Source of the DNA: an uncultured Acidobacteriota bacterium
Lineage (GTDB): Bacteria > Acidobacteriota > JAQAZP01
Assembly (NCBI GenBank): GCA_963836075.1
Contig: CAWIIB010000001.1
Span: forward strand, 225,002 to 289,001
Length of the DNA: 64,000 nt
Direction: 5' to 3'
Shown: positions 6,557-31,303 of the stretch, in pieces
Numbering within the stretch: position 1 is the first letter of the stretch
How the letters are laid out: each line of letters begins with the position of its first letter
Translations under genes and position numbers: made by a program
The notes under the pieces: generated by a model
The model's input: the letters and a program-made list of their open reading frames with translations, nothing else
Databases searched by the model: none
Told to the model about the DNA's origin: nothing

Positions 6557-6558
6557 CG

Positions 6559-8193
6559 ATGTCAGAACCTGAATACAAAATCGAAGACATAGCCCGTATC
6601 GACTACCGCCCGCCGAAGAAGGGCTGGATGGAGTCCGGCGCCGATTTCCGGGTAGGCACCTGGTGTTACAGCGCCAACGAGGAGAAGTGCCGCTATCTCG
6701 ACCTGCCCTTCCCGCACACCTGGTCGCCGTCCGACGAGGACTGGAAGCTGCCCCCGAACTGGAAGGAAATCATCCTCACCGCCCTGAGGGAGCGCAAGGA
6801 GAAATACCGTTCCTTCCAGCTGTTCATGGAGATCTGCGTCAGGTGCGGGGCCTGTGCCGACAAGTGCCACTACTTCATCGGCAGCGGCGACCCGAAGAAC
6901 ATGCCGGTGCTCCGCGGCGAGCTGCTGCGCTCGGTCTACCGCAAGGAGTTCACCACCTCGGGCAAACTGCTGGGCAAATTCGCCGGCGCCCGAGAGCTCA
7001 CCGAGGACGTAATCAAGGAGTGGTTCTACTACTTCTACCAGTGCACCGAGTGCCGGCGCTGTTCAGTCTTCTGCCCCTACGGCATCGACACCGCAGAGGT
7101 GACCATGCAGGGGCGGGAGCTGCTGGCCGAGATCGGGCTGGGGATAAACTGGATCAACGAGCCGGCGGCCAACTGCTTCCGCACCGGCAACCACCTGGGG
7201 ATCCAGCCCCACGCCTTTGTGGACAGCTTCGAGTTTGCGGTGGAAGACCTTGAGGACGTCACCGGGGTCAAGGTCGAGGCGCCGATCAACCGCAAGGGCG
7301 CCGAGATCCTGGTGGTGCCGCCCTCGGCCGACTACTTCGCTCACCCGCACTACTTCACCTTCCTCGGCTACCTGGCGCTGTTCCACGAGATCGGCCTGGA
7401 CTACACCTGGAGCGCTTACACCTCCGAGGGCGGGAACTTCGGCCTCTTCCACTCGCGGGAGATGATCAAGCGGCTCAATGCCAAGGTCTACGCCGAAGCC
7501 AAACGGCTGGGGGTCAAGTGGATTCTGGGCTGCGAGTGCGGCCACATGTGGCGGGTGATGCACCAGTACATGAACACGATGAACGGCCCGGCCGACTTCC
7601 TCGAGCAGCCGGTGTCGCCGATCACCGGGACCCGCTTCGGCAATGCCGCCTCGACCAAGATGGTGCACATCACCGAATTCACCGCGGACCTGATCCGCCA
7701 CAACAAGATCAAGCTGGACAAGAGCCGCAACGACCACATCCGGGCCACCTTCCACGACTCCTGCAACCCGGCCCGGGCCATGGGGCTGATCGATGAGCCG
7801 CGCTACGTGATCAACAACGTGTGCAACAACTTTTTCGAGATGCCGGACAACACCATCCGCGAGCAGACGTTCTGCTGCGGGTCGGGGGCCGGTCTGGGCA
7901 CCGACGAAAACATGGAGATGCGGCTGCGCGGCGGCATGCCGCGGGCCAACGCGGTGGAGTTCGTCAGGGACAAACACGGCGTGAACCACCTGCTCTGCAT
8001 CTGCGCCATCGACAAGGCCACCCTGCCGCCGCTGCTCGATTTCTGGGTGCCGGGGATCGAGGTGGCCGGAGTTCACGAGATGGTGGGCAACGCCCTGATC
8101 ATGGAGGGCTCCAATGACCGGAGCACCGACCTCCGCGGGGAGCCGTTGCCCCAGCTGGCCGCCACGGCGGAAGACAAGGGGGGTGACGACTAA
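6559..8193 (+). CDS. dsrK: DsrK, HdrD-like catalytic subunit (CCG domains, Fe-S) of DsrMKJOP
   Basis: ATG at 6559, 3 nt after the dsrM stop, with a GGAGAGGGAG RBS. The protein has CxxCxxC ferredoxin and CCG cysteine motifs (CNPARAMG…CCGSGAG). Confidence 0.9.
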   Translation: MSEPEYKIEDIARIDYRPPKKGWMESGADFRVGTWCYSANEEKCRYLDLPFPHTWSPSDEDWKLPPNWKEIILTALRERKEKYRSFQLFMEICVRCGACADKCHYFIGSGDPKNMPVLRGELLRSVYRKEFTTSGKLLGKFAGARELTEDVIKEWFYYFYQCTECRRCSVFCPYGIDTAEVTMQGRELLAEIGLGINWINEPAANCFRTGNHLGIQPHAFVDSFEFAVEDLEDVTGVKVEAPINRKGAEILVVPPSADYFAHPHYFTFLGYLALFHEIGLDYTWSAYTSEGGNFGLFHSREMIKRLNAKVYAEAKRLGVKWILGCECGHMWRVMHQYMNTMNGPADFLEQPVSPITGTRFGNAASTKMVHITEFTADLIRHNKIKLDKSRNDHIRATFHDSCNPARAMGLIDEPRYVINNVCNNFFEMPDNTIREQTFCCGSGAGLGTDENMEMRLRGGMPRANAVEFVRDKHGVNHLLCICAIDKATLPPLLDFWVPGIEVAGVHEMVGNALIMEGSNDRSTDLRGEPLPQLAATAEDKGGDD

Positions 8194-8576
8194 TGTACGA
8201 CGCTGGGAAAATCATCACCGGTCTGGTTGTCTTTCTGCTGCTGGTCACCTCGCCTGTCTGGTACAACCTGGCCAGCGGCCACTCGGCCGACGTGCCCGAG
8301 CTGGCCAAACCGGCCAACGCCGAGAACTGCGTGGCCGAAACCAGCTACATGCGGGCGGCGCACATGAACCTGCTCAATGATTGGCGCGAACAGGTGGTGC
8401 GCAACGAGAAGCGGGTCTTCGTCAGCGAGGACGGCACCGAGCACGAGATGAGCCTGACCAACACCTGCCTCGACTGCCACAAGGACAAATCGGCGTTCTG
8501 CGACCGCTGTCACGACTACACCATGGTCGATCCCTACTGCTGGGGCTGCCATATCGTGCCGGGAGGGGACAACTGA
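8193..8576 (+). CDS. dsrJ: DsrJ, periplasmic tri-heme cytochrome c
   Basis: Three CxxCH motifs (CLDCH, CDRCH, CWGCH) and an N-terminal signal/anchor. Its start overlaps the dsrK stop (TAATG). Confidence 0.9.
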   Translation: MYDAGKIITGLVVFLLLVTSPVWYNLASGHSADVPELAKPANAENCVAETSYMRAAHMNLLNDWREQVVRNEKRVFVSEDGTEHEMSLTNTCLDCHKDKSAFCDRCHDYTMVDPYCWGCHIVPGGDN

Positions 8577-9346
8577 TGGCTGTAGACCGAAGAGACTTTA
8601 TTAAAATGGCCGGGATCGGTGCCGCCCTGGGGCTGGCAGCGAAGACTCAGGCCGGTACGCTGACCAGGGAGGTCGGCAGTTACCGGGCCGGCGCGAAGGA
8701 GCGTACCGCGAAACGCTGGGCCATGGTGGTCGACCTGCGAAAAATCAGCGAGGAGACCATCGACCGCTGTGCCCGGGCCTGCCACGCGGCGCACAACGTT
8801 CCCGATTTCGGCAATCCCAAGGACGAGGTCAAGTGGATCTGGGGCGAGCCGTATCACAATGCCTTCCCGGCCCAGGAGAACCACCACACCAAGGAAGATC
8901 TGGCGCACATCATGGTCCCGGTGCTCTGCAACCACTGCGACAACCCGCCCTGTGTGCGGGTCTGCCCCACGCAGGCCACCTGGCGCCGCGAGGACGGGAT
9001 CGTGATGATGGACTGGCACCGCTGTATCGGCTGTCGCTACTGCATCACCGCCTGCCCCTACGGGTCGCGGAGCTTCAACTGGCGTGACCCCCGGCCGCAT
9101 ATCGAGAACATTGACCAGTCGTTTCCCACCCGTACCAGGGGTGTGGTGGAGAAGTGCACCTTCTGCAACGAGCGGCTGGCTCGCGGCGAGCAACCGGCAT
9201 GCGTCGAGGCCTGCGAACAGCGGGAGCTGGTGTTCGGCGACCTCGAGGACCCGCATTCCGAGGTGCGTGAGCTGCTGGCGGAGAACTTCACCATCAGGCG
9301 CAAGACGGGCCTTGGAACGCAACCCGAAATTTACTATATCGTGTAG
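8576..9346 (+). CDS. dsrO: DsrO, periplasmic ferredoxin-like Fe-S subunit (Tat signal)
   Basis: Starts at a TGATG overlap with dsrJ. The signal MAVDRRDFIKMAG is twin-arginine, and four Cys clusters of the HmcB/NrfC type are present. Confidence 0.85.
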   Translation: MAVDRRDFIKMAGIGAALGLAAKTQAGTLTREVGSYRAGAKERTAKRWAMVVDLRKISEETIDRCARACHAAHNVPDFGNPKDEVKWIWGEPYHNAFPAQENHHTKEDLAHIMVPVLCNHCDNPPCVRVCPTQATWRREDGIVMMDWHRCIGCRYCITACPYGSRSFNWRDPRPHIENIDQSFPTRTRGVVEKCTFCNERLARGEQPACVEACEQRELVFGDLEDPHSEVRELLAENFTIRRKTGLGTQPEIYYIV

Positions 9347-9355
9347 GGGCAGCAC

Positions 9356-10513
9356 ATGTTAGAAAATGCACTCTATGGTAGCCGGAAGTACTGGGGATGG
9401 ATCTTTGGCCTCCTCACGGTGATGGCGGTGGGGGCCGTCTGCTACATCTGGCAGTACAACGTGGGCCTGGGCATCACCGGGCTGAGCCGGGACGTCTCCT
9501 GGGGCTTTTACATCGCCCAGTTCACCTTCCTGGTGGGTGTCGCCGCCTCGGCGGTGATGGTGGTCCTGCCATACTATCTCCACAACTACAAGGCCTTTGC
9601 CAAGATCACCATCCTTGGCGAATTCCTCGCCATATCCGCGGTGAGCATGTGTGTCATGTTCATCTTCGTCGACATGGGTCAGCCGTTCCGGCTGATCAAC
9701 ATGTTCCTCCATCCCAGCCCGAAATCGATGATGCTCTGGGACACGGTGGCGCTCAACGGCTACCTGCTGCTCAACGTGCTCATTTCCTATGTCACCCTGC
9801 GGGCCGAGCGCAAATCGGTTGCCCCGCCCGGCTGGATCAAACCGGTGATCATCCTCTCCATTCCCTGGGCGGTGAGCATCCACACCGTCACCGCGTTCCT
9901 TTACAGCGGTCTGGGCGGGCGGCCCTTCTGGTTCACCGCCATCCTGGCCCCGCGCTTTCTGGCCTCGGCCTTTGCCTCCGGTCCTGCCCTGCTGATCATT
10001 GTCTGCCTGCTGCTCAAGCGGTTGACCCGTTTCGATGCCGGAAAGGAGCCGATCCAGAAACTGGCGATCATCGCCGCCTATGCCATGTCACTCAATGTTT
10101 TCTTCATCGCCCTGGAGTTCTTCACCGCATTCTACAGCGGCAACCCCGAGCACACCGTTCACCTGCGCTATCTCTACTTCGGGGTGGGCGGCGGCTCCAA
10201 CCTGGTGCTTTTCATGTGGGTCTCCACGGCGCTGGCCCTGGTGGCACTGGTGCTGCTGCTGGTGCCCGAGTTGCGGAAGAACGAAAAGATCCTCACCTGG
10301 GCCTGCATCGGCGTGTTCATCTCCATCTGGATCGACAAGGGGATGGGGATGGTGGTGGGCGGCTTCGTGCCCAACCCGTTGGGCAAGGTCATCGAATATA
10401 CCCCCACGCTGCCCGAGCTGCTGATCTCGGCTTCGATTTACGCCACCGGGATGCTGATCATCACCGTGCTGTACAAGATTGCGCTCTCGGTGCGCGGGCA
10501 ACTGAAATACTGA
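9356..10513 (+). CDS. dsrP: DsrP, NrfD/PsrC-like integral membrane quinone-interacting subunit
   Basis: 385 aa with about 10 predicted transmembrane segments. It is the last gene of the dsrMKJOP order. Confidence 0.9.
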   Translation: MLENALYGSRKYWGWIFGLLTVMAVGAVCYIWQYNVGLGITGLSRDVSWGFYIAQFTFLVGVAASAVMVVLPYYLHNYKAFAKITILGEFLAISAVSMCVMFIFVDMGQPFRLINMFLHPSPKSMMLWDTVALNGYLLLNVLISYVTLRAERKSVAPPGWIKPVIILSIPWAVSIHTVTAFLYSGLGGRPFWFTAILAPRFLASAFASGPALLIIVCLLLKRLTRFDAGKEPIQKLAIIAAYAMSLNVFFIALEFFTAFYSGNPEHTVHLRYLYFGVGGGSNLVLFMWVSTALALVALVLLLVPELRKNEKILTWACIGVFISIWIDKGMGMVVGGFVPNPLGKVIEYTPTLPELLISASIYATGMLIITVLYKIALSVRGQLKY

Positions 10514-10659: not shown

Positions 10660-11609
10660 ATGGGTATTGTTCTGATCGTCACCTGCCTGTCGCTGGTTGT
10701 CTTCGTCGCCAGCGTGCTGACCCGGTTCATCCGGCTCTCCCGGTTGCCGGTTCACCTGCGCTGGGAAGTCTACCCCGTGCCGCACGAGAAGGGGAAAGGC
10801 AAATACGGCGGTTCATATCTCGAGGAGTACGAGTGGTGGACCAAGCCGCGGCAGACGTCGAAGCTGGCCGAATTGAAGGTGATGATCCCGGAGATCATCC
10901 TGCTGGCCGGTGTCTGGGAACACAACAGGAAGCACTGGTTCCGCACCTTCCCCTTCCACTTCGGCCTCTACCTCCTGGCCGGGCTGATCGCCCTCCTCGC
11001 CGTTGGCGGCGTGGCCACGGCGGCCGGCGTCCAGGTGACGGCGGACGGGGGCCTGTTCGGTGCGCTGGTCTACTACCTGACCATGGTGCTGGGCTATGCC
11101 GGCATGGGCCTGGCCCTCTATCGGGGCGTTGGCCCTGCTGCTGCGGCGGACCTTCAACGCCGACTACCGCGAATACACCACCGGCGCCGACTTCTTCAAC
11201 CTCGCTCTTCTTCATTGCCGCCCTGGTGGTGGCCCTGGTCACCCACTTCACGGTGGACCGGCACTTCGCCAACCTGCGGGGCTTTTTCCAGGGGCTGCTG
11301 ACCTTCGACGGTTCGGCGATCCCGCAGCTGTCAGCGCTGCAAAGCCTGGAGATCGTACTGGCCTCGCTGCTGGTGGCCTATATCCCGCTGACCCACATGT
11401 CGCACTTCTTCACCAAGTGGTTCACGTACCACGACGTGCGCTGGAGCGACGAACCGAACCTCGAGGGCAGCGGGTTCGACGAGAAGATTGCCAAGCAACT
11501 TGAAGTCCACGGTGAGTTGGTCCGCCCCGCACATCCGCGGCGACGGCAAGAAGAAAAACTGGATCGACGTGGTCACGTCTTCGGGGCGGGAGGAATAGCA
11601 AGTGCATGA
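10660..11609 (+). pseudogene. second NarI/DsrM-like membrane cytochrome b (HmeC/HdrE-type, 'DsrM2'), disrupted by two +1 insertions
   Basis: Start MGIVLIVTCLSLVV with a GGAGG RBS. Frame breaks lie at ~11123-11127 (an extra G in cggggcg) and ~11212-11217 (an extra base in cttctt). The reconstructed protein keeps TM helices and a C-terminal THMSHFFTKWFTYH heme-ligand motif like the DsrM and QmoC C-termini. Its stop overlaps the next start (ATGA). Confidence 0.65.
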
Positions 11610-13224
11610 CAAAAAAACGCGTAAAATTCAGAGATATTTCGAAACCAACGGCCAGGCTGTCCGAGGAGCTGCGCAAGGAGGACTTCATGCCGCTCCCCGC
11701 GCCGCTGGACGATGCCGGAGGCTCTGCCGGACTTCCCGCCGTTGAAAGAGACAGTGGAAGAAAAGTACGAGTGCTCACTGGACGACACGGTGGCCCTCAA
11801 TCTGCCAAAGCCCGAGACCAAGGAAGAGGAGGACGAGCTGGTCGCCAAGTTCCTCTCCGGGCTGCAGAAGCTCTTCACCAAGGAGAACAACTGGACCTTT
11901 CTCCAGCCGCTGCTGCTCTCCATGGACCACTGCGCCTCCTGCCACACCTGCTCCGACTCCTGCCACATCTACGAGGGCAGCGGCAAGAACCCGATCTACC
12001 GGCCGGCCTACCGCTCGGAGGTTTTCCGCCGGCTCTACAAGAACCATGTCAAGGGTAACGGCGGCGGGATTCTGGCCGCCTGGCGCAACGGCGAGATCGA
12101 GCTCAACTGGACCACCGTGGCCCGGCTGGCCGAGCTCTCCTACCGCTGCAACCTCTGCCGGCGCTGCGCCCAGACCTGTCCCATCGGCGTGGACAACGGC
12201 CTGATCGGCCACGAGATCCGCAAGCTGTTCAGCCAGGAGATGGGCATCGCGGCCAAGGAAATCCACGAGACCGGCTCGGTGCTGCAGCTCAAGGTGGGCT
12301 CCTCCACCGGGATGAACGACCTGGTGGTCAAGGACAACATGGAGTTCATCGACGAGGACGTCACCGAGAAGACCGGGATCACCGTGGAGACGCCCTGGGA
12401 CAAGGAAGGGGCCGACATCCTGCTGATCCACAACGCCGGCGAGATCATGGCCTGGCCGCTGAACCCCGGGGCCTTCGGCGTGATCTTCGAGTCGGCCGGG
12501 CTGAGCTGGACCATGTCCAGCGAGATCGCCGGTTACGACAGCATCAACTACGGCCTCTGGTACGACGATGCCCAGTTCGCCCGGGTGGCGATCAAGCACG
12601 CCGAGGCGGCGAAGAAGCTGGGCGTGAAGAAGATCGTCCTCGGCGAGTGCGGGCACGCCCACAAGGCACTGACCGTGATCGCCGACCGGGTGCTCACCGG
12701 CGACCTGAACATCCCCCGGGAAAGCTGCCTGGTGACCCTGGAGGAGATCGTCATGTCCGGCCGGCTGAAGGTCGACCCGGAGCGCAACGACTTCCCGGTG
12801 ACCCTGCACGACCCCTGCAACCTGGTGCGACTGATGGGCATCGTCGAGCCGCAGCGCCGCATCCTGCGCAAGATCGCCCCGCGGTTCCGCGAGATGACGC
12901 CCCACGGCGTCGACAACTACTGCTGCGGCGGCGGCAGCGGGTTCGCCATCATGAGCGGCAACAACTTCGCCGACTGGCGGATCCAGGTCTCCGGGCCGCA
13001 AGAAGCTCGAGCAGGTGCTCAACGCCTTCGAGGGCGAGCTGGACCCGTCGATCAAGAAGTATGTCTGCGCCCCCTGCTCCAACTGCAAGGGCCAGCTGCG
13101 GGACATCTTCGCCTACTACGATCTGTGGGAGAAGCACTCCATCATGTATGACGGGCTGGTGGAACTGATCGTCAACTGCATGGTGGACGCCAACCCGGGC
13201 TTCATCGAGTGGGAGCAGCACTGA
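11606..13224 (+). pseudogene. second HdrD/DsrK-like CCG-domain Fe-S protein ('DsrK2'/HmeD-like), disrupted by two +1 insertions
   Basis: The N-terminus MTKKRVKFRDISKP… runs in frame 2 up to ~11716, where an extra G sits in ccggagg. The long middle ORF 11712..13151 has CxxCxxCxxxC plus CCG motifs (CNLVRLMG, CCGGGSGF). An extra C at ~12998 shifts to the C-terminal ORF ending at 13224 (…CAPCSNCKGQ…). Confidence 0.65.
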
Positions 13225-13470: not shown

Positions 13471-13499
13471 TTGACAACCAAAATCGCTCTTGGTAGAGT
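13471..13499 (+). promoter_or_regulatory. sigma70-type promoter for aprBA (TTGACA-17-TAGAGT)
   Basis: Consensus -35 at 13471-13476, a 17-bp spacer, and -10 TAGAGT at 13494-13499. This implies a ~265-nt 5' leader. Confidence 0.5.
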
Positions 13500-13766
13500 T
13501 GGCGCTGATTTGTGTCGTGAATGATACTCGTACCAGTTCCCTCGGCTGACCGCCAGGGGAACCGGAGGATTTTCAGAGAGCTTCATTTCATATACAAGGT
13601 GTCAATCAATCGGGACGAGATTTCAGGAAAACTATGGGGCTTTTTCCCAAGGAATTCCACATTCAGGCTGAAAAGATAGCCCTGGGGAAGGGGGTGGCGC
13701 CAAAGTAGAAAAGGGTGTTTTCAGTCCATCGAATCGTTAGACTTGCAATTAAAGGAGACGCTGATA

Positions 13767-14198
13767 ATGCCAAGTTATGTCATTCCCGATAAGTGCGATG
13801 GCTGCAAGGCTCTGGACAAGACGGCCTGCCAGTATATCTGCCCCAACGACCTGATGAAGCTGGACAAGGCCACTGAGAAGGCCTACAACCAGGATCCGGA
13901 CATGTGCTGGGAGTGCCAGTGCTGTGTCAAGATCTGCCCCACCCAGGCCATCGACGTGCGCGGCTATGCCGACTTCATGCCCCTGGGCGCCAGCGTTGTG
14001 CCCATGCGGAGCACCGACTCCATCATGTGGACGATCAAGTTCCGTGACGGAAGTCTGAAGCGGTTCAAGTTCCCCATCCGCACCACCGAGGAAGGCAAAG
14101 CCGTTCCCGATGGCGGATTCGAGACGCACAGCGATCTCAACAGCCCCGAACTCTACACCGAGCCGGCCTCCGCCGGCGGGCCCATTGCCAAGCTGTAG
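13767..14198 (+). CDS. aprB: adenylylsulfate (APS) reductase beta subunit
   Basis: MPSYVIPDKCDGCK… with two [4Fe-4S] ferredoxin motifs. An AAGGAG RBS lies 10 nt upstream of the ATG at 13767, and aprA follows directly. Confidence 0.9.
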   Translation: MPSYVIPDKCDGCKALDKTACQYICPNDLMKLDKATEKAYNQDPDMCWECQCCVKICPTQAIDVRGYADFMPLGASVVPMRSTDSIMWTIKFRDGSLKRFKFPIRTTEEGKAVPDGGFETHSDLNSPELYTEPASAGGPIAKL

Positions 14199-16120: not shown

Positions 16121-16142
16121 CCACACGGCCATTGCTTTTCAG

Positions 16143-16181
16143 CCCCCCGGGCGCGCCCTGCGTGCCCGGGGGGTTCTCTTT
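16143..16181 (+). terminator. intrinsic terminator after aprA (CCCCCCGGGC-N11-GCCCGGGGGG + TTCTCTTT)
   Basis: A perfect 10-bp GC stem followed by a T-rich tract. A second 7-bp inverted repeat (ACACGGCtcgGCCGTGT) lies at 16183-16199. Confidence 0.75.
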
Positions 16182-16333: not shown

Positions 16334-16627
16334 ATGACAGAACAGACACCCCAGACCTGCCCCCACTGCCAATCGGCCCTGTTGCCGTTTCGCACGCCGC
16401 CCAACACTTCGTGGGGCGGCAACATCCACCTGGCCTGCTTCAACGACGAATGTCCCTACTTCGTCCGCGGCTGGAAGTGGATGGCCGAAAAATACGAAGC
16501 CCACGCCTCGTACCGTTTCATGGTCGACCCGGTGAACGGGACCACCGGACCCCTGCCGGTCTGGTCGGCCCAGGCGCTGCGCGACTTGATTCTGCAAGAG
16601 GGCGAAGAGTGGGATTCCGAGGAGTGA
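16334..16627 (+). CDS. small zinc-ribbon-like hypothetical protein (CPHC…CFNDECPYF)
   Basis: 97-aa ORF with four Cys in a CxxC…CxxxC arrangement. It lies 4 nt upstream of the next ORF, in the same operon as qmoABC. Confidence 0.55.
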   Translation: MTEQTPQTCPHCQSALLPFRTPPNTSWGGNIHLACFNDECPYFVRGWKWMAEKYEAHASYRFMVDPVNGTTGPLPVWSAQALRDLILQEGEEWDSEE

Positions 16628-16631
16628 CTGG

Positions 16632-17454
16632 ATGAACGAGGCCAGCGATTTCAAGAAAAAGATCATGTCGGATGCGCCCCGCCTGAACTACGGCGACCGT
16701 TTCCGCTTTTCCTGCAACCCCGGCGTGCCCTGCTTCAATGCCTGCTGCGCCGACATCAACATCGTCTTGACCCCCTACGACATCCTGCGGCTGAAAAACC
16801 GCCTGGGCATCAGCTCCAGCGAATTCCTCGACAGATACGCCGTGGTGCCCTTCAACAAGGAAGTCAAGCAGCCGGTGCCGCTGCTCAAGATGTCGGACCA
16901 CGAGGACAAGCGCTGCCAGTTCGTTGGCCAACAGGGCTGCACGGTTTACGAGGACCGGCCCTGGGCCTGCCGGATGTACCCCCTGGGGCTGGCCGCACCG
17001 CGTGACGAAGCCGAGCAGGGCAAGCGGTTCTACTTCCTGCTGGAAGAGTCACACTGCAAGGGCTTCGAGGAAGACAACGAATTCTCGGTGGCCGGCTGGA
17101 TCGAAGACCAGGGGATCCGCGAGTACCGATGAGGCGGGGGAACTGTTCAAGGACATTTCGCTGCACCCCTATTTTGAAAAAGGCGACCTCTCGCCGGCCA
17201 AGATGGACATGTTCTTCAACGCCTCCTATGACCTGGACCGCTTCCGCCGGTTTGTCTTCGGATCGAGTTTTCTCGAAAAGTTCGACGTGGAGCAGGAGAC
17301 GGTGGACAAGATCAGGACCGATGACGTGGCGATGATGAAATTCAGCTTCAACTTCCTGCGCTACGCGCTGTTTTACGAACCGACGATGAAGTTGAAACCG
17401 GAGTTCGAAGAGATGAAGAAACGGGAGAAGGAGTTCTTCGAGGAGAAGGACTGA
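16632..17454 (+). CDS. YkgJ/UPF0153-family putative Fe-S/zinc-chelating protein with a C-terminal charged extension (one +1 frameshift)
   Basis: Has the CxxxxCxxCC…C family signature (SCNPGVPCFNACCADINIVLTPYD…CQFVGQQGCTVYEDRPWACRMYP). The reading frame shifts at ~17126 (an extra C in tacc), after which the protein continues as …DEAGELFKDISLHPYFEKGD… to 17454. Confidence 0.6.
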
Positions 17455-17498: not shown

Positions 17499-18767
17499 GT
17501 GAACAATCAGACGGCAGGCAACGGCAATGGCGCCATCCTGGTCATCGGGGGCGGCATCGCCGGCATCACCGCTGCGGTGGAAGCGGCGGAGGTGGGCTAC
17601 AAGGTCATCCTGGTGGAGAGGGAAGCCTCCCTCGGAGGCCGGGTGATGAGGCTTCATCAGTATTTTCCCAAACTCTGCCCGCCGACGTGCGGCATGGAAG
17701 TGAACTTCCGCCGGATCCGGAACAACCCCCGAATCGAAGTCCTGACCCTGGCCGAGGTGAACAGCATTGCCGGCAGCCGCGGGTCCTATGACGTTTCGAT
17801 CACGGTCAATCCGCGGTATGTCACCGGCAAGCAGCCGGTGAGTTCGGCCCACCTGGACGCGGTGAGCAGCGAAGTGCCCGACAGTTTCAACCTCGGCCTG
17901 CAGAAGGTCAAGGCGCTGCGCCTGCCCCACGACATGGCCTATCCGCCGCTGCACGTCCTGGACAGGGACACGCTGAGCGCCGATGAGCTGGCGGCGCTGG
18001 GAGCCGCCGAACCACAGGGTGCCGTCGACCTCGACGAGCAGCCCCGGACCGTGGAACTCAAGGTGGGGGCGGTGATCATCGCCACCGGCTGGCGGCCCTA
18101 TGACGCCTCGAACCTCGATATTCTCGGCTACAACGAGAGTCCGGATGTTATCGCCAACGTGGAAATGGAACGGCTGGCCTCGTTCACCGGACCCACCGGC
18201 GGCAAGATCCAGCGGCCCTCCGACGGCGCCGAGCCGAAAAGCGTGGCCTTTGTCCAGTGCGCCGGGTCGCGGGATGTGAACAACCTGCCGTACTGTTCCG
18301 CGGTCTGCTGTATGGGATCGCTGAAGCAGGCGCGCTACGTCCGCGAACAACTGCCTGACGCCGAGGTAACCATTTTCTACATCGATATCAGGACCATCGG
18401 CCGTCACGAGGAGTTCTACTACGACCTGCTGCAGGACGACAAGGTCCGCTTCGTCAAGGGCAAGGTGGCCAAGGTGAACGTGGAAGGGGAGAGGCTGGAA
18501 CTGCTGGTGGAAGACACCGTGGGCGGCAAGCTGCTCAAGGAGTCCTTTGACCTGGTGGTCCTGGCCACCGGCGTGGTGCCCAACAACGCCGATGCCCCGG
18601 TCCCCGGCGCCGACGTGGAAACCGATGATTACGGGTTCATCGTTCCCGGCGCCGAGCGCAACGGGATCTACGCCGTGGGCTGCGCCCGGCAGCCCACCGA
18701 GGTTTCCCGTTCGGTAAAGGATGCCACTGCGGCCGTACTGAAGGCCATCCAGGACGTGAGGAGATAG
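17499..18767 (+). CDS. qmoA: QmoA, HdrA-like flavoprotein of the quinone-interacting membrane-bound oxidoreductase complex
   Basis: GTG start with a GGGAGG RBS. The FAD fold (ILVIGGGIAGITAAVEAAE) and HdrA-like Cys residues are present, in aprBA-qmoABC synteny. Confidence 0.9.
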   Translation: MNNQTAGNGNGAILVIGGGIAGITAAVEAAEVGYKVILVEREASLGGRVMRLHQYFPKLCPPTCGMEVNFRRIRNNPRIEVLTLAEVNSIAGSRGSYDVSITVNPRYVTGKQPVSSAHLDAVSSEVPDSFNLGLQKVKALRLPHDMAYPPLHVLDRDTLSADELAALGAAEPQGAVDLDEQPRTVELKVGAVIIATGWRPYDASNLDILGYNESPDVIANVEMERLASFTGPTGGKIQRPSDGAEPKSVAFVQCAGSRDVNNLPYCSAVCCMGSLKQARYVREQLPDAEVTIFYIDIRTIGRHEEFYYDLLQDDKVRFVKGKVAKVNVEGERLELLVEDTVGGKLLKESFDLVVLATGVVPNNADAPVPGADVETDDYGFIVPGAERNGIYAVGCARQPTEVSRSVKDATAAVLKAIQDVRR

Positions 18768-18769
18768 CC

Positions 18770-21019
18770 GTGGAAGAGAAACTCGGAGTATTCATCTGCA
18801 CCGGATACGGCATCGGCGAAGCGCTGGATGTGGAGGCGCTGCAGAAGGTGGCCACCGGTGAGTACAAGGCAGCCGTCTGTGAAACCATCGATTCCTGTGC
18901 CGCGGAGGACCTGCAGAAGCTGCGGGCCGCCGCCGTTGAGCAGCAGCTGACCCATGTGGTGCTGGCCGGACGCTCCGGCCGGTCCTACGCTGCCGGCGAC
19001 CTGCCCGACGGTATCGCGGTGGAAACAGTCAACCTGCTGGAGTGGGTTGTGCTGACCCATCCCGCCGGCGACGAGGACACCCAGGCCATGGCGGAGGACT
19101 ACCTCCGCATGGGAATCGTCCGTGTGAAAAAGACCAGCCCCGCCGCGCTATTCGAGGAGCATGACCGCCTGTGCAGGACCATCATGGTGGTGGGCGGCGG
19201 CATCGCCGGCCTCACCGCGGCGCGGGAGGCCGCCGATGCCGGCTACCAGGTGGTGCTGGTGGAGAAGGAAAAGGAACTTGGCGGCTACATGAAAAAGCTG
19301 CACCGCTCCATCCCCACCCGCCCGCCGTACCGCGAGCTGGAGGAAACCGGCATCGAGGCCCTGGTGCAGGCGGTCACCGCCCACCAGAACATCACCGTGC
19401 ACAGCGGAACCACGATCAAGGAGACCCTTGGCGCCCCGGGCCTGTTCACGGTGACCCTCGACGGTGACGGCGCCGGAACGCTGGAGGTGGGCACCTTTGT
19501 CCAGGCCACCGGGTTCCGCCCGGCCGAGCCGGAAAATTTCGAGCACCTGGGGTACGGAAAACTGGCCAACGTGATCACCAACCACCAGCTGGAGGAGATG
19601 GCGGCCAACGGGGGCATCAAGCGTCCGTCGGACGGCGCCGCGGTGAAGAACGTGGCTTTTGTTCAGTGCGGCGATTCCCGAAATCCCGAGACCTTCTCCT
19701 ACGCCTCGGCGATCATGTCGCTCAACGCACTGAAGCAGGCGCTATACGTGCGCGAACAGGGCGAGGACGCCAAGGCCTACGTCTTCTTCGAGCACCTGCG
19801 CACACCCGGCCAGCTCGAAGATTTCTATCGCCGGGTCCAGGAGGACCCCGGTGTCTTCCTCACCCGCGGATCGGTGGATTCGGTGGCCGAGAGTGGCGGT
19901 GGCCTGACCCTGCAGGTCAAGGACACGATGATCGGCGAGGAGATCTCCGTCGAGGTGGACATGCTGGTCCTCAACTCCGGCATGGTCCCTGTGGCCGCCG
20001 ACGGCGAGGCGATCCGCAAGCTGGAAGACTCCAAGGCCATCGTGGCCAAGGGGCCGGAAGATGCCAAGTACAAGGACTCGGTGAAGCGGGTGGAAGAGCT
20101 GGCCAGCCACGAAGGCACGGCTATTCTCAATCTCAACTACCGCCAGGGTCCGGACATGCCGGCGCTGAAGCACGGCTACCCCGACTCGCATTTCATCTGC
20201 TTCCCCTACGAGACCCGGCGCACCGGCGTTTACGCCGCCGGGGCGGTCCGCTCGCCGATGAACGGCAACAGCGCCGCCGAGGATGGCATGGGCGCCGCGC
20301 TGAAAGCGATCCAGGCCGTGGAGATGCTCTCCCGCGGCGAGACGGTGCACCCCCGGGCCGGCGATGTGTCCTTCCCGCACTTCTCCCTCGAGCGTTGCAC
20401 ACAGTGCAAGCGTTGCACCGAGGAGTGCCCCTTCGGCGCCATCAACGAGGACGCCAAGGGAACGCCGGAATACAACGTCACCCGCTGCCGTCGCTGCGGC
20501 ATCTGTCTCGGCGCCTGCCCGGAACGGATCATCAATTTCCCCGACTACGGCGTGGCGCCGGTGGCCGAGATGATCAAGGCCGTGGAGGTGCCCGACGAGT
20601 ACGAGGAGAAGCCCCGGGTGCTGGTGCTGGCCTGCGAGAACGACGCCCTGCCGGCCCTGGAGCGGGCGGCAAACCACGGCCTGTCCTACAGCGGTTTCGT
20701 GCGGGTGATCCCGGTGCGCTGCCTCGGCAGCTGCAACGTGGTCTGGATCAAGGAAGCCATCTCGGTGGGTTTTGACGGTGTGCTGCTGCTGGGCTGCAAG
20801 TGGGGTGACGATTACCAGTGCCACTACATCAAGGGCAGCGAGCTGATGAACACCCGCGGTGACAACATCAAGGAAACCCTGCAGCAGATGTCCATGGAGA
20901 ACGAGCGCGTCCAGCTGCACCAGGTGGAAATCACCGACTACCGGAAGGTGGTCACCCTGATCGAGGAGTTCATGGAAATGATCGAAGAGATCGGCATGAA
21001 CCCCTTCAAGGGCATGTAG
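18770..21019 (+). CDS. qmoB: QmoB, HdrA-like flavoprotein with C-terminal MvhD-like/ferredoxin domains
   Basis: 749 aa with a second FAD fold (IMVVGGGIAGLTAAREAAD), 2x[4Fe-4S] (CTQCKRCTEECP, CRRCGICLGACP) and an MvhD-like C-terminus. Confidence 0.9.
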   Translation: MEEKLGVFICTGYGIGEALDVEALQKVATGEYKAAVCETIDSCAAEDLQKLRAAAVEQQLTHVVLAGRSGRSYAAGDLPDGIAVETVNLLEWVVLTHPAGDEDTQAMAEDYLRMGIVRVKKTSPAALFEEHDRLCRTIMVVGGGIAGLTAAREAADAGYQVVLVEKEKELGGYMKKLHRSIPTRPPYRELEETGIEALVQAVTAHQNITVHSGTTIKETLGAPGLFTVTLDGDGAGTLEVGTFVQATGFRPAEPENFEHLGYGKLANVITNHQLEEMAANGGIKRPSDGAAVKNVAFVQCGDSRNPETFSYASAIMSLNALKQALYVREQGEDAKAYVFFEHLRTPGQLEDFYRRVQEDPGVFLTRGSVDSVAESGGGLTLQVKDTMIGEEISVEVDMLVLNSGMVPVAADGEAIRKLEDSKAIVAKGPEDAKYKDSVKRVEELASHEGTAILNLNYRQGPDMPALKHGYPDSHFICFPYETRRTGVYAAGAVRSPMNGNSAAEDGMGAALKAIQAVEMLSRGETVHPRAGDVSFPHFSLERCTQCKRCTEECPFGAINEDAKGTPEYNVTRCRRCGICLGACPERIINFPDYGVAPVAEMIKAVEVPDEYEEKPRVLVLACENDALPALERAANHGLSYSGFVRVIPVRCLGSCNVVWIKEAISVGFDGVLLLGCKWGDDYQCHYIKGSELMNTRGDNIKETLQQMSMENERVQLHQVEITDYRKVVTLIEEFMEMIEEIGMNPFKGM

Positions 21020-21029: not shown

Positions 21030-22145
21030 ATGAGTACCACAGCAGATCTCCAGTTCGCCAACGACGTGATCCGCGCCGGCGGGTCGGAGGTGATGAAATG
21101 CTACCAGTGCGCCACCTGCTCGGCGGTGTGCGAACTGGCGCCGGTGGACAAGCCGTTTCCGCGCAAGGAGATGATCTGGGCCCAGTGGGGGCTGCAGGAG
21201 CGGCTGATCGGCGATCCCGACGTCTGGCTCTGCCACCAGTGCAACGACTGCACCGTGCACTGCCCGCGAGGCGCCAAGCCGGCGGACGTGATGTCGGCGG
21301 TACGGCAGCTGAGCATCGAGCATTACGCGGTACCCCGGGCCCTGGCCCGGATGGTCAACAAACCCGGCATGCTGCCGCTGCTGCTGGCCATCCCGTCGCT
21401 GGTCATCGGGCTTATATTGATTCTGCTGTACGCCGGCGGGGTGATCGAGCTGGGCGGCCACGAGGTGGAATATGCCAAGATGTTTCCCCACGCCTGGCTC
21501 AACGGCAGCTTCACCATCTTCTTCTTTGTCGCCTGCGGGGCGCTGTTCGTCGGTTTGCGCCGCTTCTGGAACGACATGGACCGGCTGGCCCCGGCAACCG
21601 GGGCGGATCGCAAACCGCTGATCGGCTCGCTGATCGGGCTGCTGCTGGAGTTCATTGCGCACAGCCGTTTCGGCAAGTGCACCGACGACCACTATCGCAA
21701 ACTGTCCCACCTGGGGGTGGTTTTCGGTTTCGCCGGCCTGCTGCTGGTCACCGCCGTGGCCATCGTTTACATCCTGCTGCACCTGCCCTATCCCATGGCC
21801 CAGACCAACCCGTTCAAGATCCTCGGCAACCTCAGTGCCCTGGCCATGCTCAGCGGCCTGCTGGTGCTGATCTTCAAGCGTTTCGAAAAACGTGACACCG
21901 CCCGGGGCAGCACCTACTTTGACTGGTCCTTCCTCGTGCTGCTGCTGCTGGTGGTGGTCACAGGTCTGCTCACCGAGGCGGCCCGGCTGGTGGGCGTGGC
22001 TGCCGTGGCCTATCCGGTCTACTATGTGCACCTGGTTATCATCTGGTCACTCTTCGTCTATGCGCCCTATTCCAAAATGGCCCACCTGGCCTACCGGCTC
22101 ACCGCGCTGCTGCACGCCCGGGTCAATGGCAGGGAGGAGGTCTGA
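21030..22145 (+). CDS. qmoC: QmoC, HdrC/HdrE-fusion membrane subunit (Fe-S plus heme b)
   Basis: N-terminal 2x[4Fe-4S] (CYQCATCSAVC, CHQCNDCTVHCP) followed by a NarI-like membrane domain. Confidence 0.9.
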   Translation: MSTTADLQFANDVIRAGGSEVMKCYQCATCSAVCELAPVDKPFPRKEMIWAQWGLQERLIGDPDVWLCHQCNDCTVHCPRGAKPADVMSAVRQLSIEHYAVPRALARMVNKPGMLPLLLAIPSLVIGLILILLYAGGVIELGGHEVEYAKMFPHAWLNGSFTIFFFVACGALFVGLRRFWNDMDRLAPATGADRKPLIGSLIGLLLEFIAHSRFGKCTDDHYRKLSHLGVVFGFAGLLLVTAVAIVYILLHLPYPMAQTNPFKILGNLSALAMLSGLLVLIFKRFEKRDTARGSTYFDWSFLVLLLLVVVTGLLTEAARLVGVAAVAYPVYYVHLVIIWSLFVYAPYSKMAHLAYRLTALLHARVNGREEV

Positions 22146-22160: not shown

Positions 22161-23915
22161 ATGAAGAACAGCATCCAAGTGGAACAGCTCCGCAGCCTGG
22201 AGAAAAAACTGCGCGATTCCTTTCCTTCCCGCTCCCTCTGGGACGGCCTGGCCGACGTGATCCCCGACGCCATGTTCGTCATGGACGAGGACCGCCGGAT
22301 CATTTACTGGAGCGGAAGGGCGGAGGAGATGACCGGGTTCACCCCCGGGGACGTGCTGGGCAAGAACTGCTGTGCCGACGAGCGGTGCAACAACTGCCCC
22401 AAGGGTTGCCCGTTGTTCCAGGAGGGTTCGATGAACAACCTGGAAGGCATTTTTGCCACCAAGGACGGGCGGGTGATCCCGGTGCTGAAGAACGGTCTGC
22501 TGTTCCGCAACCGCCGGGGGCGGATCCTCGGCGCGGTGGAAACCATCCGCGACATCTCCATCGAGGAGCAGACCAGCCAGAGTCTGGCCCGGGAGCAGGT
22601 GCGTTTCGATTCGCAGAAACGTCTGTTGGAGTCGGTGATCGGCGCGGTGTCCGAAGGGGCGGTGGCCATCGACCGTGACCTGCAGATCATCAGCTTCTCC
22701 CGTCAGGCCTCGGAGATCAGCGGGGTAGCGGTGGAGGATGCCATCGGCGCCAAGTGCTGCGACATCCTGCGCAACCCGCTCTGCGAGGAGCAGTGCCCGA
22801 TGCAGCACCTGGCCGATCACCGGACCAGGCAGCCCGGGCTGCCCACCCGGATCAGCGGCGCCGGCGGCGACAGCATTCCGGTCACCGAGTCGGTGGTGCC
22901 GATCTTCATGGAGGGCAAGCTCAGCGGCGGGATCATCATCCTGCGCGACATGCGGGCCGAGGAAAAGCTGGCCCTGGAACAGATGCGCAGCGGGCAGCTG
23001 GACGAGATGATCGGCCGTTCCAGCGCGATGCAGAACATCTTCTATCTCATCGACCGGCTGGCCGAAATCGACACTCCGGTCTGTCTGGTGGGGGAGGCCG
23101 GAACCGGGCGGGATATCGTCGCCCGGACCCTGCACCGCAAGAGTGTTCGGTCCGAGGGCCAGCTGCGCAGCATCGACTGCGGCCTGCTTCCCGAGCACCT
23201 GCTGGAGAGCGAGTTTTTCGGGCATCTCAAGGGCGCCCTGCCCGGGGCGGTGCGCGACAAGGTCGGGCAGCTGGAACTGGCCCACCGGGGTACGCTGTAC
23301 GTGGCCCAGGTGGAAAAGCTGCCCCGGCCGCTGCAGAAGAAGCTCGTGCGGTTTCTCGAGACCGGGGAATTCACCAAGGTGGGCGGCAAGAACAGTATCG
23401 AAAGCGACGTGCGGATGATCTGCGCCTTCAACGAGGATTTCGAATCCCTGGTGCAAGAGGGACGCATCGGCAAGGACCTCTATGACGCCGTGTGCGGAAT
23501 CGTGATCAACATCCCGCCGCTGCGCGACCGCCGACTGGACATCGAACTGCTGGTGGTCCACTTTCTCAAGAGCCAGGACGTCTCGGGGATCGGTGAAACC
23601 CAGGCGAAGAAGATATCCGCCGGCGCCCTGCGGGCCCTGGTCCGCTACCCCTGGCCCGGCAACGTTCGAGAACTGCGTAACGTCCTCGACTACGCGGTAT
23701 CGGTCTGCTCGGGAACGACGATCAACCTCAACGATTTGCCACCGGAGATCATCAGCTCGCTGGTTCCCAGCGACGATTCCGGTGAGGACGATGAACGGAC
23801 CCGGATCCTCCGCGCCCTGGAGGAAACCCACTGGCGCCGTTCGGAAGCGGCCCAGGCCCTGGGAATGGACCGTTCCACCCTCTGGAGAAAGATGAAATCC
23901 TTCGGTCTCTGCTGA
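22161..23915 (+). CDS. sigma54-dependent Fis-family transcriptional regulator with two Cys-rich PAS-like sensor domains
   Basis: AAA+ sigma54-interaction domain (GEAGTGRD…GAFTGA-like region, ESEFFGH) and a C-terminal Fis HTH (RSEAAQALGMDRSTLWRKM). The N-terminal PAS-like region carries the Cys-rich motifs CCADERCNNCPKGCP and CCDILRNPLCEEQCP. The gene starts 16 nt after qmoC. Confidence 0.8.
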   Translation: MKNSIQVEQLRSLEKKLRDSFPSRSLWDGLADVIPDAMFVMDEDRRIIYWSGRAEEMTGFTPGDVLGKNCCADERCNNCPKGCPLFQEGSMNNLEGIFATKDGRVIPVLKNGLLFRNRRGRILGAVETIRDISIEEQTSQSLAREQVRFDSQKRLLESVIGAVSEGAVAIDRDLQIISFSRQASEISGVAVEDAIGAKCCDILRNPLCEEQCPMQHLADHRTRQPGLPTRISGAGGDSIPVTESVVPIFMEGKLSGGIIILRDMRAEEKLALEQMRSGQLDEMIGRSSAMQNIFYLIDRLAEIDTPVCLVGEAGTGRDIVARTLHRKSVRSEGQLRSIDCGLLPEHLLESEFFGHLKGALPGAVRDKVGQLELAHRGTLYVAQVEKLPRPLQKKLVRFLETGEFTKVGGKNSIESDVRMICAFNEDFESLVQEGRIGKDLYDAVCGIVINIPPLRDRRLDIELLVVHFLKSQDVSGIGETQAKKISAGALRALVRYPWPGNVRELRNVLDYAVSVCSGTTINLNDLPPEIISSLVPSDDSGEDDERTRILRALEETHWRRSEAAQALGMDRSTLWRKMKSFGLC

Positions 23916-24278: not shown

Positions 24279-24596
24279 ATGCCAGTTTTTGAATTCGATG
24301 GACAGGAGATCGAGGTCGACGAGGACGGGTTCATCCAGAATCCCGATGTCTGGAACGACGACATCGCCGCGGCGCTGGCCAAGACCGAGGGTGTCGACGA
24401 ACTGACCGAAGACCACTGGAAGCTGGTCCGCTACCTCCGGGACTACTACCTGCAGTTCGGTATCGCCCCCATGATCCGCAAGCTCTGCAAGGCCACCGGC
24501 TTCTCGCTGAAGACCGTTTACGAACTGTTCCCCAGCGGCCCGGCAAAGGGTGCCTGCAAGGTGGCTGGTCTGCCCAAGCCCACCGGCTGTGTGTAA
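24279..24596 (+). CDS. dsrC: DsrC, dissimilatory sulfite reductase-associated sulfur-carrier protein (TusE/DsrC family)
   Basis: 105 aa ending …KGACKVAGLPKPTGCV, with the two conserved C-terminal arm cysteines. An AAAGGAG RBS lies 7 nt upstream. Confidence 0.9.
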   Translation: MPVFEFDGQEIEVDEDGFIQNPDVWNDDIAAALAKTEGVDELTEDHWKLVRYLRDYYLQFGIAPMIRKLCKATGFSLKTVYELFPSGPAKGACKVAGLPKPTGCV

Positions 24597-24656
24597 ACGG
24601 CATTCAGGTATTTGACGTATTCCCGAAGATGAGAGAAAACCGAGAAGGGAGTTGTG

Positions 24657-25886
24657 ATGGCTGAACCGAAGAAATACGACACCCCCTTGCTGGACGAGCT
24701 TGAAAAGGGTGCCTTTCCCAGCTTCGTGACCGAGATCAAGCGGATGGCCGAGCGCAAGCCGATGGCCGCCGACCTGCTGGGCCAGCTGGAGAAATCGTAT
24801 CGCGACAAGATCGGCTACTGGAAGCATGGCGGCCTGGTTGGCGTGATGGGTTACGGCGGCGGCGTGATCGGCCGCTATTCCGCCCAGAACGAAGAGTTCC
24901 CTGAGGTGTCCCACTTCCACACCATCCGGGTCAACCAGCCCTCCGGCTGGTTCTACAGCACCGAGAAACTGCGCCTGCTCTGCGACATCTGGGACCGCCA
25001 CGGTTCCGGCCTGACCAACATGCACGGCTCCACCGGCGACATCGTCTTCCTCGGCACGCGCACCGAAGAGCTGGAGCCGATCTTCTCCGAGCTGACCGAG
25101 AACGGGTTCGACCTCGGCGGTTCCGGGTCCTGCATGCGGACTCCCAGCTGCTGCGTGGGACCGGGCCGCTGCGAGTGGGCGCTCTACGACACCCTGGCCC
25201 TGACCTACCAGCTGACCATGGACTTCCAGGACGAGATGCACCGTCCGCCGTTCCCCTACAAGTTCAAGTTCAAGATGGCCGGCTGCCCCAACGACTGCGT
25301 GGCCTCCATCGCCCGCGCCGACATGTCGATCATCGGCACCTGGCGGGACGAGATCAAGATCGATGCCGCCGCCCTGAAGAGCGAGTATATCGACAAGGGC
25401 AAAGACATCCAGTCCGACGTGGTCGACATGTGTCCCACCGGCTGCATGAAGTTCGACGGCGAAACCCTGGACATCGACAACGCCAACTGCACCAAGTGCA
25501 TGCACTGCATCAACGTGCTGCACCACGCACTGGCTCCCGGCGATGATCGCGGCGCCTGTATCCTGGTCGGTTCCAAGGCCCCCATCGTCGAGGGCGCGCT
25601 GCTCTCCTCGGTGATCGTGCCCTTCATCAAGCTGGAAACGCCCAAGGAGGGTGAGGATCCCTATCCCGAACTGATGGACCTCGTCGAGAGGATGTGGGAC
25701 TTCTGGGGTGAGAACGGCAAGAACCGTGAGCGGATCGGCGAGATGATCCAGCGGATCGGCCTGGGGAACTTCCTCGACGAGATCGAGGTGGACCCGATTC
25801 CGGAGATGATCGTGCATCCCCGGACCAACCCCTACATCTTCTTCGAAGAGTATTACGAGGACGATGACGAGGACGACGAGGAATAG
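24657..25886 (+). CDS. dsrA: dissimilatory sulfite reductase alpha subunit
   Basis: Siroheme/[4Fe-4S] binding Cys clusters ([31 protein letters not shown]) and an AAGGGAG RBS. Confidence 0.9.
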
Positions 25887-25955
25887 ATCGTCGCTCCACC
25901 AGGATCGACTTACGTAGGAGATTTCAGTTTAAGATAGAGCAAATGGAGGTTTTCC

Positions 25956-27052: not shown

Positions 27053-27295
27053 ATGGCTGATGTCAGCATCGAGCAGATTGCGGACGAGATGTTCAAGATG
27101 GTCGAAGACGCCTCCGGCAAGCGGAACTACAAGCCGGGCGACCTGGTCAAGGCCATGATGGCCAAGTTCGACGCGGACAAGAAGACCTGCAAGACTGCTC
27201 TGCGGACGCTGATGGACTCCGGCCGCTGTGTCTACGGATACTTCGGCGGAACTTCGGTCCAGTTGCCGCACAAGGAAGGCGCTGCGAACGACTAG
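27053..27295 (+). CDS. dsrD: DsrD (small winged-helix protein, marker of reductive-type Dsr)
   Basis: 80 aa in the conserved position after dsrB, with a lysine-rich winged-helix-like sequence (…KPGDLVKAMMAKFDADKKTCKTALRTLMDSGRCVYGYFGG…). Confidence 0.8.
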   Translation: MADVSIEQIADEMFKMVEDASGKRNYKPGDLVKAMMAKFDADKKTCKTALRTLMDSGRCVYGYFGGTSVQLPHKEGAAND

Positions 27296-31179: not shown

Positions 31180-31303
31180 CCGGGGGCGCCGGCACGGGCG
31201 CTGACATGTCTATCTGTCGAGGATTTCAAGGTCTCTGGGAACGCTGCCTGTGATACGCACAGGCAACACGTGAGTTATTTACTCATCAGTGAGGAGCAAG
31301 TGC

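Follow-up and report, generated by a model that had tools for sequence, protein, structure and literature searches.

A conserved gene pair directly behind aprBA, encoding a zinc-ribbon protein and a long YkgJ-family protein, as a proposed accessory module of dissimilatory APS reductase

Introduction

How adenosine 5'-phosphosulfate (APS) reductase, AprBA, is supplied with electrons has long been a missing piece of sulfate-respiration bioenergetics. The Qmo complex is essential and binds AprBA, and electron transfer from Qmo to Apr has been proposed to need a further partner; among the organisms known at the time, no genes for such a partner accompanied sat-aprBA-qmoABC (Ramos et al. 2012, PMC3333476). 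Here, we describe two open reading frames (ORFs), ORF1 and ORF2, located directly behind aprA in a 64,000-nucleotide stretch of DNA from an uncultured Acidobacteriota bacterium (GTDB lineage JAQAZP01; assembly GCA_963836075.1, contig CAWIIB010000001.1, positions 225,002 to 289,001 of the forward strand), hereafter referred to as the window. ORF1 encodes a small four-cysteine zinc-ribbon protein and ORF2 a long member of the YkgJ family. Together they constitute a conserved, uncharacterised addition to a well-known operon, and our best reading is that they would form a zinc-ribbon plus Fe–S accessory module dedicated to APS reductase, acting either as a redox partner or as a maturation or modification factor.

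Genes at this position have been mentioned twice before, without family, distribution or function. Thiel et al. (2019) reported "two conserved hypothetical genes" in the order sat-aprBA-hyp-hyp-qmoC in Candidatus Thermonerobacter thiotrophicus, an Ignavibacteria-related metagenome-assembled genome (MAG), where they occupy the same place as ORF1 and ORF2, directly after aprA (PMC6338057). Hausmann et al. (2018) drew syntenic genes for conserved proteins without known function within the sulfur clusters of Acidobacteria; the MAGs concerned carry two to three locus tags between aprA and qmoA and, as in the window, dsrM2K2 just before aprB (PMC6018796). Matched by position and taxon only, these genes would correspond to ORF1 and ORF2. 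The supplements of both papers hold no expression data for the genes between aprA and qmo, and we found no full-text literature linking YkgJ, COG0727 or PF03692 to sulfate reduction.

Two further systems invite comparison. DVU0851 of Desulfovibrio vulgaris is likewise an uncharacterised gene co-transcribed with aprBA-qmoABC; it lies at the end of the qmo operon, following qmoC and not aprA, and reportedly has no homologues outside Desulfovibrio, whereas ORF1 and ORF2 span many phyla (PMC3125180). On these grounds of position and distribution, it was set aside as an equivalent of either gene. FliB, the flagellin lysine-N-methyltransferase of Salmonella, acts on another protein, possesses eight conserved cysteines and binds an oxygen-sensitive [4Fe–4S] cluster through a CX4CX3CC motif (PMC8598068). 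ORF2 shares with FliB the number of conserved cysteines and a similar signature, CX5CX3CC. The two proteins nevertheless show no whole-protein relationship through curated models, they differ in size and in their C-terminal regions, and FliB is flagellar whereas ORF2 stands in a sulfur context.

Linkage of the gene pair with aprBA

In the window, ORF1 encodes 97 amino acids and is followed after 4 nt by the ATG of ORF2, whose Shine–Dalgarno sequence (GGAGGAG) lies within the 3' end of ORF1; a further 44 nt separate ORF2 from the GTG start of qmoA. Both spacers, and the 97-aa zinc-ribbon-like protein with its CPHC...CFNDEC pattern, agree with the original prediction, which had been made from the window alone. 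No paralogue of ORF1 or ORF2 was found elsewhere in the window.

A scan using one genome per species identified at least 579 relatives of ORF2. The counts given below refer to the 80 closest loci with flanking sequence, in which homologues of Apr, Qmo and DsrK2 were located by tblastn. These loci carry the labels Zixibacteria, Gemmatimonadota, Ignavibacteria, Planctomycetota, Myxococcota/Deltaproteobacteria and Elusimicrobia. ORF1 lies immediately 5' of ORF2 in 75 of 79 loci, and the two genes mostly either overlap or are separated by spacers of at most 30 nt. The gene aprA is found within 1.2 kb upstream of the pair, on the same strand, in 64 of 73 loci, a count that rises to 66 when two loci with a tandem duplication of ORF2 are added. 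The order aprB-aprA-ORF1-ORF2 is kept in nearly all of the 80 loci, and the pair is strongly conserved beside apr and qmo genes in other genomes, the reverse of the outcome that would have refuted the original prediction. In most of the sulfate- or sulfite-cycling lineages recognised of late (Zixibacteria, Gemmatimonadota, Ignavibacteria, Acidobacteria, Planctomycetota and delta-type MAGs), it occupies the place immediately after aprA.

The gene that follows ORF2 varies among loci and may be qmoA, a dsrM2K2-type pair, qmoC alone, dsrA or, in 16 loci, a convergent gene. An Acidobacteria contig retains aprB-aprA-ORF1-ORF2-qmoABC with spacers of 2 and 12 nt, a complete Zixibacteria chromosome reads sat-aprBA-ORF1-ORF2-dsrM2-dsrK2, and in Ignavibacteria-labelled loci ORF2 is followed by qmoC. 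Homologues of the dsrM2K2-type genes of the window, 61–64% identical, occur 1.1–2.1 kb downstream of ORF2 in six loci (L010, L012, L047, L050, L065 and L080). Because the downstream gene varies in this way, the invariant block is aprB-aprA-ORF1-ORF2, and the conserved partner of the pair is aprBA, not qmoABC.

This result bears directly on the affiliation of the pair, which the original prediction had placed in the qmoABC transcription unit, suggesting accessory, maturation or electron-transfer partners of QmoABC or APS reductase. That both genes are real, uncharacterised and conserved holds; their tie is to aprBA, with qmoA directly downstream in only 29 of 74 loci. A role as an extra subunit or assembly factor specific to Qmo would explain why the pair abuts qmoA with short gaps in the window, in those 29 loci and in the Acidobacteria contig, and why one distant homologue pair stands beside qmoAB-hdrCB with no aprBA in view. 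It is difficult to reconcile with Zixibacteria and Ignavibacteria, which keep aprBA-ORF1-ORF2 while qmoAB lie at other sites, as in an arrangement of sat-aprBA-hyp-hyp-qmoC with qmoAB elsewhere on the chromosome (Thiel et al. 2019, PMC6338057), and we regard it as quite improbable. Pfam searches, and tblastn searches without cross-matches to QmoA, QmoB or QmoC, also revealed no homology of ORF1 or ORF2 to QmoA/B (HdrA-like) or QmoC (HdrC/E-like), in keeping with the earlier statement that neither protein is part of the described Qmo complex.

Two further features of these loci were observed. The long-YkgJ gene is tandemly duplicated after aprA-ORF1 in L047 (3167–4859) and L080 (9073–10768). 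The 16 loci with a convergent gene, mostly labelled Zixibacteria or Ignavibacteria (L009, L016, L018, L019, L021, L027, L028, L037, L039, L040, L042, L045, L048, L062, L064 and L070), carry after ORF2, with a median spacing of 78 nt, a conserved minus-strand gene that encodes about 225 aa; Pfam gave no match for a 120-aa N-terminal fragment from one of its members.

Distant relatives of ORF2

When the representatives of clusters at 50% identity were searched exhaustively, 181 clusters had an E-value of at most 1e-30; they cover ORF2 over approximately its full length at 30–56% identity and conserve all eight of its cysteines. The linkage described here gives this large YkgJ subfamily its first physiological context. 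Eight distant members on long contigs were sampled for gene context. In four of them, a long-YkgJ gene whose product is 41–46% identical to ORF2 is divergently oriented beside aprB-aprA-qmoA-qmoB, and no ORF1 homologue occurs near it. The AprA proteins of these contigs are only 47% identical to that of the window and hence belong to another AprA lineage. A fifth contig (L086, 5237–6804) carries two tandem long-YkgJ copies beside qmoAB and hdrC/hdrB-type genes, with no aprBA in view. In a sixth, the long-YkgJ gene (P0407) lies at the contig edge within the same syntenic region as in the four apr-adjacent contigs, and the named members of its cluster are Desulfobacterales MAGs.

The Desulfobacterales-type contigs also encode a second PF03692 protein of 260–472 aa, located 1–2 kb from the aprBA-adjacent one and beside an HD-domain gene (L087, 8032–9450; L090, 7566–8351; L092, 1198–1980).

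Features of the ORF2 protein

As read, ORF2 starts at 16632 and encodes 166 aa up to a stop codon at 17130–17132, beyond which the coding sequence runs on in the +1 frame as far as 17454. Against the Pfam family PF03692 (CxxCxxCC), whose cut-off is 23 bits, the N-terminal part of the window fragment scores 43.5 bits and the intact homologue P0001 42.5 bits, so the assignment to the YkgJ/UPF0153 family made from the letters alone is borne out. Members of this family (YkgJ/UPF0153/COG0727) share with ORF2 the N-terminal CxnCxnCC motif and a GCxVYxxRPxxCRxYP motif, and no function has been assigned to the family as a whole. ORF2 differs from YkgJ proteins at large in belonging to a long subfamily of approximately 240–290 aa with an additional helical C-terminal domain, and in its genomic tie to aprBA. 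Its relatives number in the thousands, and almost all are unnamed.

Eight cysteines of ORF2 are invariant, at positions 28, 34, 38, 39, 95, 103, 113 and 142. The first four form the motif C28-x5-C34-x3-C38C39, and the second block comprises C95, C103, R109-P110, C113-R114-x-Y116-P117 and C142. The pattern is invariant in 118 close homologues, and each cysteine is kept in 104–108 of the 108 full-length sequences that represent the wider family. As the CX4CX3CC motif of FliB binds a [4Fe–4S] cluster and ORF2 has CX5CX3CC together with four further invariant cysteines, we infer from the FliB biochemistry that ORF2 is most likely a cytoplasmic protein with at least one [4Fe–4S] cluster on Cx5Cx3CC.

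The C-terminal portion had been described as a charged extension of about 100 aa, a description that requires correction. Residues ~150–250 form a helical domain, conserved throughout the long-YkgJ subfamily and predicted with a predicted local distance difference test (pLDDT) score mostly above 90; charge and low confidence are confined to the final ~25 residues. The model of P0001 as a whole has a pLDDT of 89.7. This C-terminal domain is covered by no Pfam or NCBIfam model, and no NCBIfam model matched P0001, P0029, P0400 or the window fragments at E-values up to 10. No curated family spans the whole of ORF1 or of ORF2, and no solved structural neighbours of either predicted fold were found. 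A relationship to the CCG-domain proteins of the HdrB/DsrK type was also considered and was rejected after hhalign comparison of the ORF2 family with 16 DsrK2-type proteins (probability 0.1%, E = 0.67).

Features of the ORF1 protein

ORF1 contains four cysteines (C9, C12, C35 and C40) in the pattern CPHC...CFNDEC, and its conserved core extends through CFNDECPYFVRGWxWM...ASYRxxxDPxTGxTGPLPVWS. In its AlphaFold2 model (pLDDT 83), a helix and a small beta unit come after the zinc ribbon. More than 100 relatives are detectable, almost all of them unnamed, and no NCBIfam model matches the protein. The sole family assignment is a marginal one: residues 8–51 match Pfam Ogr_Delta (PF04606) at 28.3 bits against a cut-off of 26.3, and Ogr_Delta is also the precomputed family for most ORF1 homologues. 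The likeness to the Ogr/Delta activators of P2-like phages consists in a four-cysteine zinc ribbon scoring barely over the threshold. The conserved C-terminal half of ORF1 is absent from Ogr, and ORF1 has no phage context, standing instead beside aprBA. Searching the model against viral predicted structures (BFVD) returned nothing at E ≤ 0.001 (best E = 0.41), and its matches to SH3/KOW-like structures were insignificant. Since neither comparison revealed a convincing counterpart, the Ogr/Delta label is best read as denoting a generic zinc ribbon.

Taken at face value, the label would make the pair regulatory, with ORF1 acting as a zinc-finger transcription factor of the Ogr/Delta type and ORF2 as an Fe–S partner that senses redox state or sulfite, the two tuning apr and qmo expression. 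The same family assignment across most homologues fits this proposal, as does the divergent placement of the distant YkgJ homologues relative to aprBA, which is typical of regulators. The Pfam match is, however, limited to the zinc ribbon, and the conserved C-terminal half of ORF1 bears no relation to Ogr. ORF2 lacks a DNA-binding domain, homologues of the Desulfobacterales type occur without any ORF1, and a sigma-54 activator is already encoded beside qmoC. A regulatory pair therefore appears improbable.

Frameshift and selection

The single +1 frameshift noted earlier in the YkgJ-like gene is present in the sequence as given, as a 1-nt insertion. DNA alignment to the closest locus, L001 (88% identical), places one extra C within GAGTA[C]CGATGAG. 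The repaired frames join as ...WIEDQGIREY|DEAGELFK..., ungapped against 12 intact homologues, and the resulting 273-aa protein aligns end to end with intact homologues at 54–92% identity. The truncated 166-aa product is recorded in the database from a contig of 2.30 Mb; other members of its cluster at 90% identity have the intact length of 273 aa. Compared with L001, the window carries five further single-base insertions (11119, 11205, 11500, 11603 and 12993), four in the dsrM2-like gene and one in dsrK2. All six, including that at 17126, fall in coding DNA within approximately 6 kb, and none affects aprBA or qmoA; the cluster looks like the product of an indel-prone assembly.

The ratio of nonsynonymous to synonymous substitution rates (dN/dS) relative to L001 is 0.086 for ORF1, 0.064 for ORF2 before the frameshift and 0.088 after it in the corrected frame, compared with 0.066 for AprA. 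Judged by these ratios, both genes are under purifying selection, ORF2 also 3' of the frameshift. Given the five nearby insertions, the intact close relatives and the selection downstream, the extra C is probably an assembly or base-calling error rather than biology; a very recent mutation is the less likely alternative.

These data also bear on whether the two genes are mere passengers on a laterally transferred aprBA cassette, without any role in APS reduction, with ORF2 of the window a decaying pseudogene. The frameshift itself would suit such a history, and the 68–97% identity of AprA across very different phyla does suggest cassette transfer. Purifying selection is, however, as strong as on AprA and persists after the frameshift, the gene order is kept across phyla while the flanks vary, a second, independent association exists in another AprA lineage, and the neighbouring insertions point to sequence error. 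Hitch-hiking is accordingly a very improbable explanation.

Stem-loop and transcription

The gap of 213 nt between aprA and ORF1 contains a stem-loop that begins 21 nt after the aprA stop codon, its 16-bp stem enclosed by an outer helix. For the surrounding 80 nt, the folding energy is -51.2 kcal/mol (z = -6.7 against shuffled sequences), and the tail of the stem-loop, CUCUUUAAC, is only moderately U-rich. An equivalent hairpin beats every shuffle in 66 of 68 loci, with a median energy of -30.7 kcal/mol, and starts at a median distance of 21 nt from the aprA stop codon. Stem sequences vary from lineage to lineage while the structure is kept across phyla, and five or more U residues within the next 8 nt occur in only 10 of the 68 loci.

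The original prediction had identified a strong intrinsic terminator (16143–16181) ending aprBA and a new transcription unit beginning at ORF1. A very stable, conserved, terminator-like hairpin with a weak U tail is indeed present at this site; the separate transcription unit is not supported, as the gap contains neither a sigma-70-like nor a sigma-54-like (-24/-12) promoter and U-tracts are few among the loci. Sigma-54 consensus matches over the window are fewer than expected by chance, and none near the apr, qmo or dsr genes is convincing as a -24/-12 promoter. Within 13.2–24.2 kb, the sole good sigma-70-like match (TG-extended TTGACA-17-TAGAGT, 10/12) lies at 13471–13499, upstream of aprB by approximately 265 nt. 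Its position fits a single aprBA-led transcript that could reach through ORF1, ORF2 and qmoABC. Because the hairpin is kept in nearly all loci while a canonical U-tract is rare, partial termination or 3'-end stabilisation with read-through would fit at least as well as full termination. The stem-loop may thus set the ratio of aprBA to downstream expression or protect the aprBA 3' end.

Possible roles of the pair

Taking these features together, we propose that ORF1 and ORF2 would constitute a translationally coupled two-gene accessory module for dissimilatory AprBA, outside Qmo. ORF1 would be a small zinc-ribbon protein made in step with ORF2 and probably its partner, as the tight coupling of the two genes suggests. 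Both would probably be made from read-through transcripts at a level below that of AprBA, since the pair sits behind the conserved stem-loop. The resulting complex is envisaged to dock on AprBA as a redox-active helper, passing electrons between AprB and QmoABC, QmoC alone or DsrM2K2, whichever the organism uses; alternatively, it may keep AprBA reduced and active. A redox-active helper that docks on AprBA, either receiving electrons from a quinol-linked module or maintaining the reduced enzyme, is the role we favour, tentatively and at slightly less than even confidence.

By genomic linkage, AprBA is the putative partner or target of the pair. Several observations weigh against the favoured role. 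Classical sulfate reducers such as Desulfovibrio (DVU0846–0850) run aprBA-qmoABC and are not known to have these genes in the operon. The pair lies away from aprBA in 5 of 73 loci, where ORF1 and ORF2 still remain together, and two of the eight distant members sampled show no linkage to sulfur genes. Flanking genes are common to the four Desulfobacterales-type contigs and to that of P0407, so that the four may count as one evolutionary observation; even so, the divergent arrangement is a second gene arrangement linking the long-YkgJ family to aprBA. Finally, the sole biochemically studied protein with this cysteine motif is a methyltransferase enzyme, not an electron carrier (PMC8598068).

The last point leads to a different proposal, in which ORF2 is a FliB-like Fe–S enzyme and ORF1 its substrate-recognition or scaffold partner, so that the pair would be a catalytic maturation or modification factor of AprBA and not a stoichiometric redox partner. 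Methylation or other radical chemistry on AprA or AprB, or cluster or flavin insertion, would be examples. FliB, the only characterised protein with the motif, uses its CX4CX3CC [4Fe–4S] cluster and S-adenosylmethionine (SAM) to modify a protein and likewise has eight conserved cysteines. A position behind a stem-loop, or on a separate divergent transcript in the Desulfobacterales-type contigs, fits a low-abundance factor, and the pair is sometimes found away from aprBA, as maturation genes usually are. An analogous case is methyl-coenzyme M reductase, whose modifying enzymes have their genes beside mcr. ORF2 nevertheless matches no NCBIfam model, including any for FliB that the library may contain, and no SAM-binding or methyltransferase fold was detected in it. 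We also know of no AprBA modification reported in the solved Archaeoglobus or Desulfovibrio enzymes, although those organisms are without the pair. This proposal is somewhat unlikely in our view. The comparative data are compatible with both a redox role and maturation or modification; the regulatory, Qmo-specific and hitch-hiking explanations fit less well.

A bolder and distinctly doubtful extension holds that the pair is the missing physiological partner of AprBA, either as a third component for quinol-derived electrons from Qmo or DsrM2K2 or as a FliB-like radical Fe–S enzyme installing an as yet unseen modification that this AprBA lineage requires. If either version were true, the sulfate-reduction/sulfite-oxidation pathway would gain a new core component in many sulfur-cycling phyla of recent discovery, and Desulfobacterales would have a distant counterpart of it. 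Irrespective of this extension, the two genes are clonable candidates for the proposed Qmo–Apr partner and might serve as an additional marker when this AprBA lineage is annotated.

Genomic surroundings

The window contains one large dissimilatory sulfur gene island around apr-ORF1-ORF2-qmo (Table 1). The gene designated dsrM2-like, which has no Pfam match, was assigned by position only.

Table 1. Coordinates of the gene pair and surrounding features in the window
Feature	Position	Strand	Remarks
dsrMKJOP-type genes	5555–10513		
dsrM2-like gene	10833–11609	+	Upstream of aprB; several frameshifts; GC content at third codon positions 0.63
dsrK2-like gene	11712–13224	+	Upstream of aprB; one frameshift, frame resumes 13015–13224; Pfam Fer4_8 and CCG on 11712–13148
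aprB, APS reductase beta subunit	13764–14198	+	ORF; 65–96% identity (tblastn) in nearly all 80 loci; homologues with Pfam APS-reductase_C
aprA, APS reductase alpha subunit, 633 aa	14219–16120	+	ORF; 68–97% identical in related loci
Stem-loop after aprA	16141–16175	+	16 bp, GC-rich; terminator-like or attenuator, weak U tail
ORF1, 97-aa four-Cys zinc-ribbon protein	16334–16627	+	ORF, Pfam, predicted model, synteny
ORF2, long YkgJ/CxxCxxCC protein, 273 aa after repair	16632–17454	+	ORF, Pfam, homologue alignment
Single-base insertion in ORF2	17126/17127	+	CC where homologues have C; alignments
qmoA	17499–18767	+	Downstream of ORF2; start GTG
qmoB	18770–21019	+	Downstream of ORF2
qmoC	21030–22145	+	Downstream of ORF2
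Sigma-54-type activator	22161–23915		Directly after qmoC; PAS-like N-terminal regions, several Cys motifs
dsrC	24279–24596		
dsrA and dsrB	24654–27041		
dsrD	27053–27295		
dsrN			After dsrD, before dsrL
dsrL	28930–30639		
CBS-domain gene	30682–31179		Between dsrL and sat
sat	31289–32488		

Downstream of qmo, dsrD and dsrL occur in one cluster, with a CBS-domain gene before sat, which is compatible with either direction of sulfur metabolism. The combination of dsrD and dsrL has been called unusual in the Acidobacteria and Candidatus Thermonerobacter MAGs (PMC6338057, PMC6018796).

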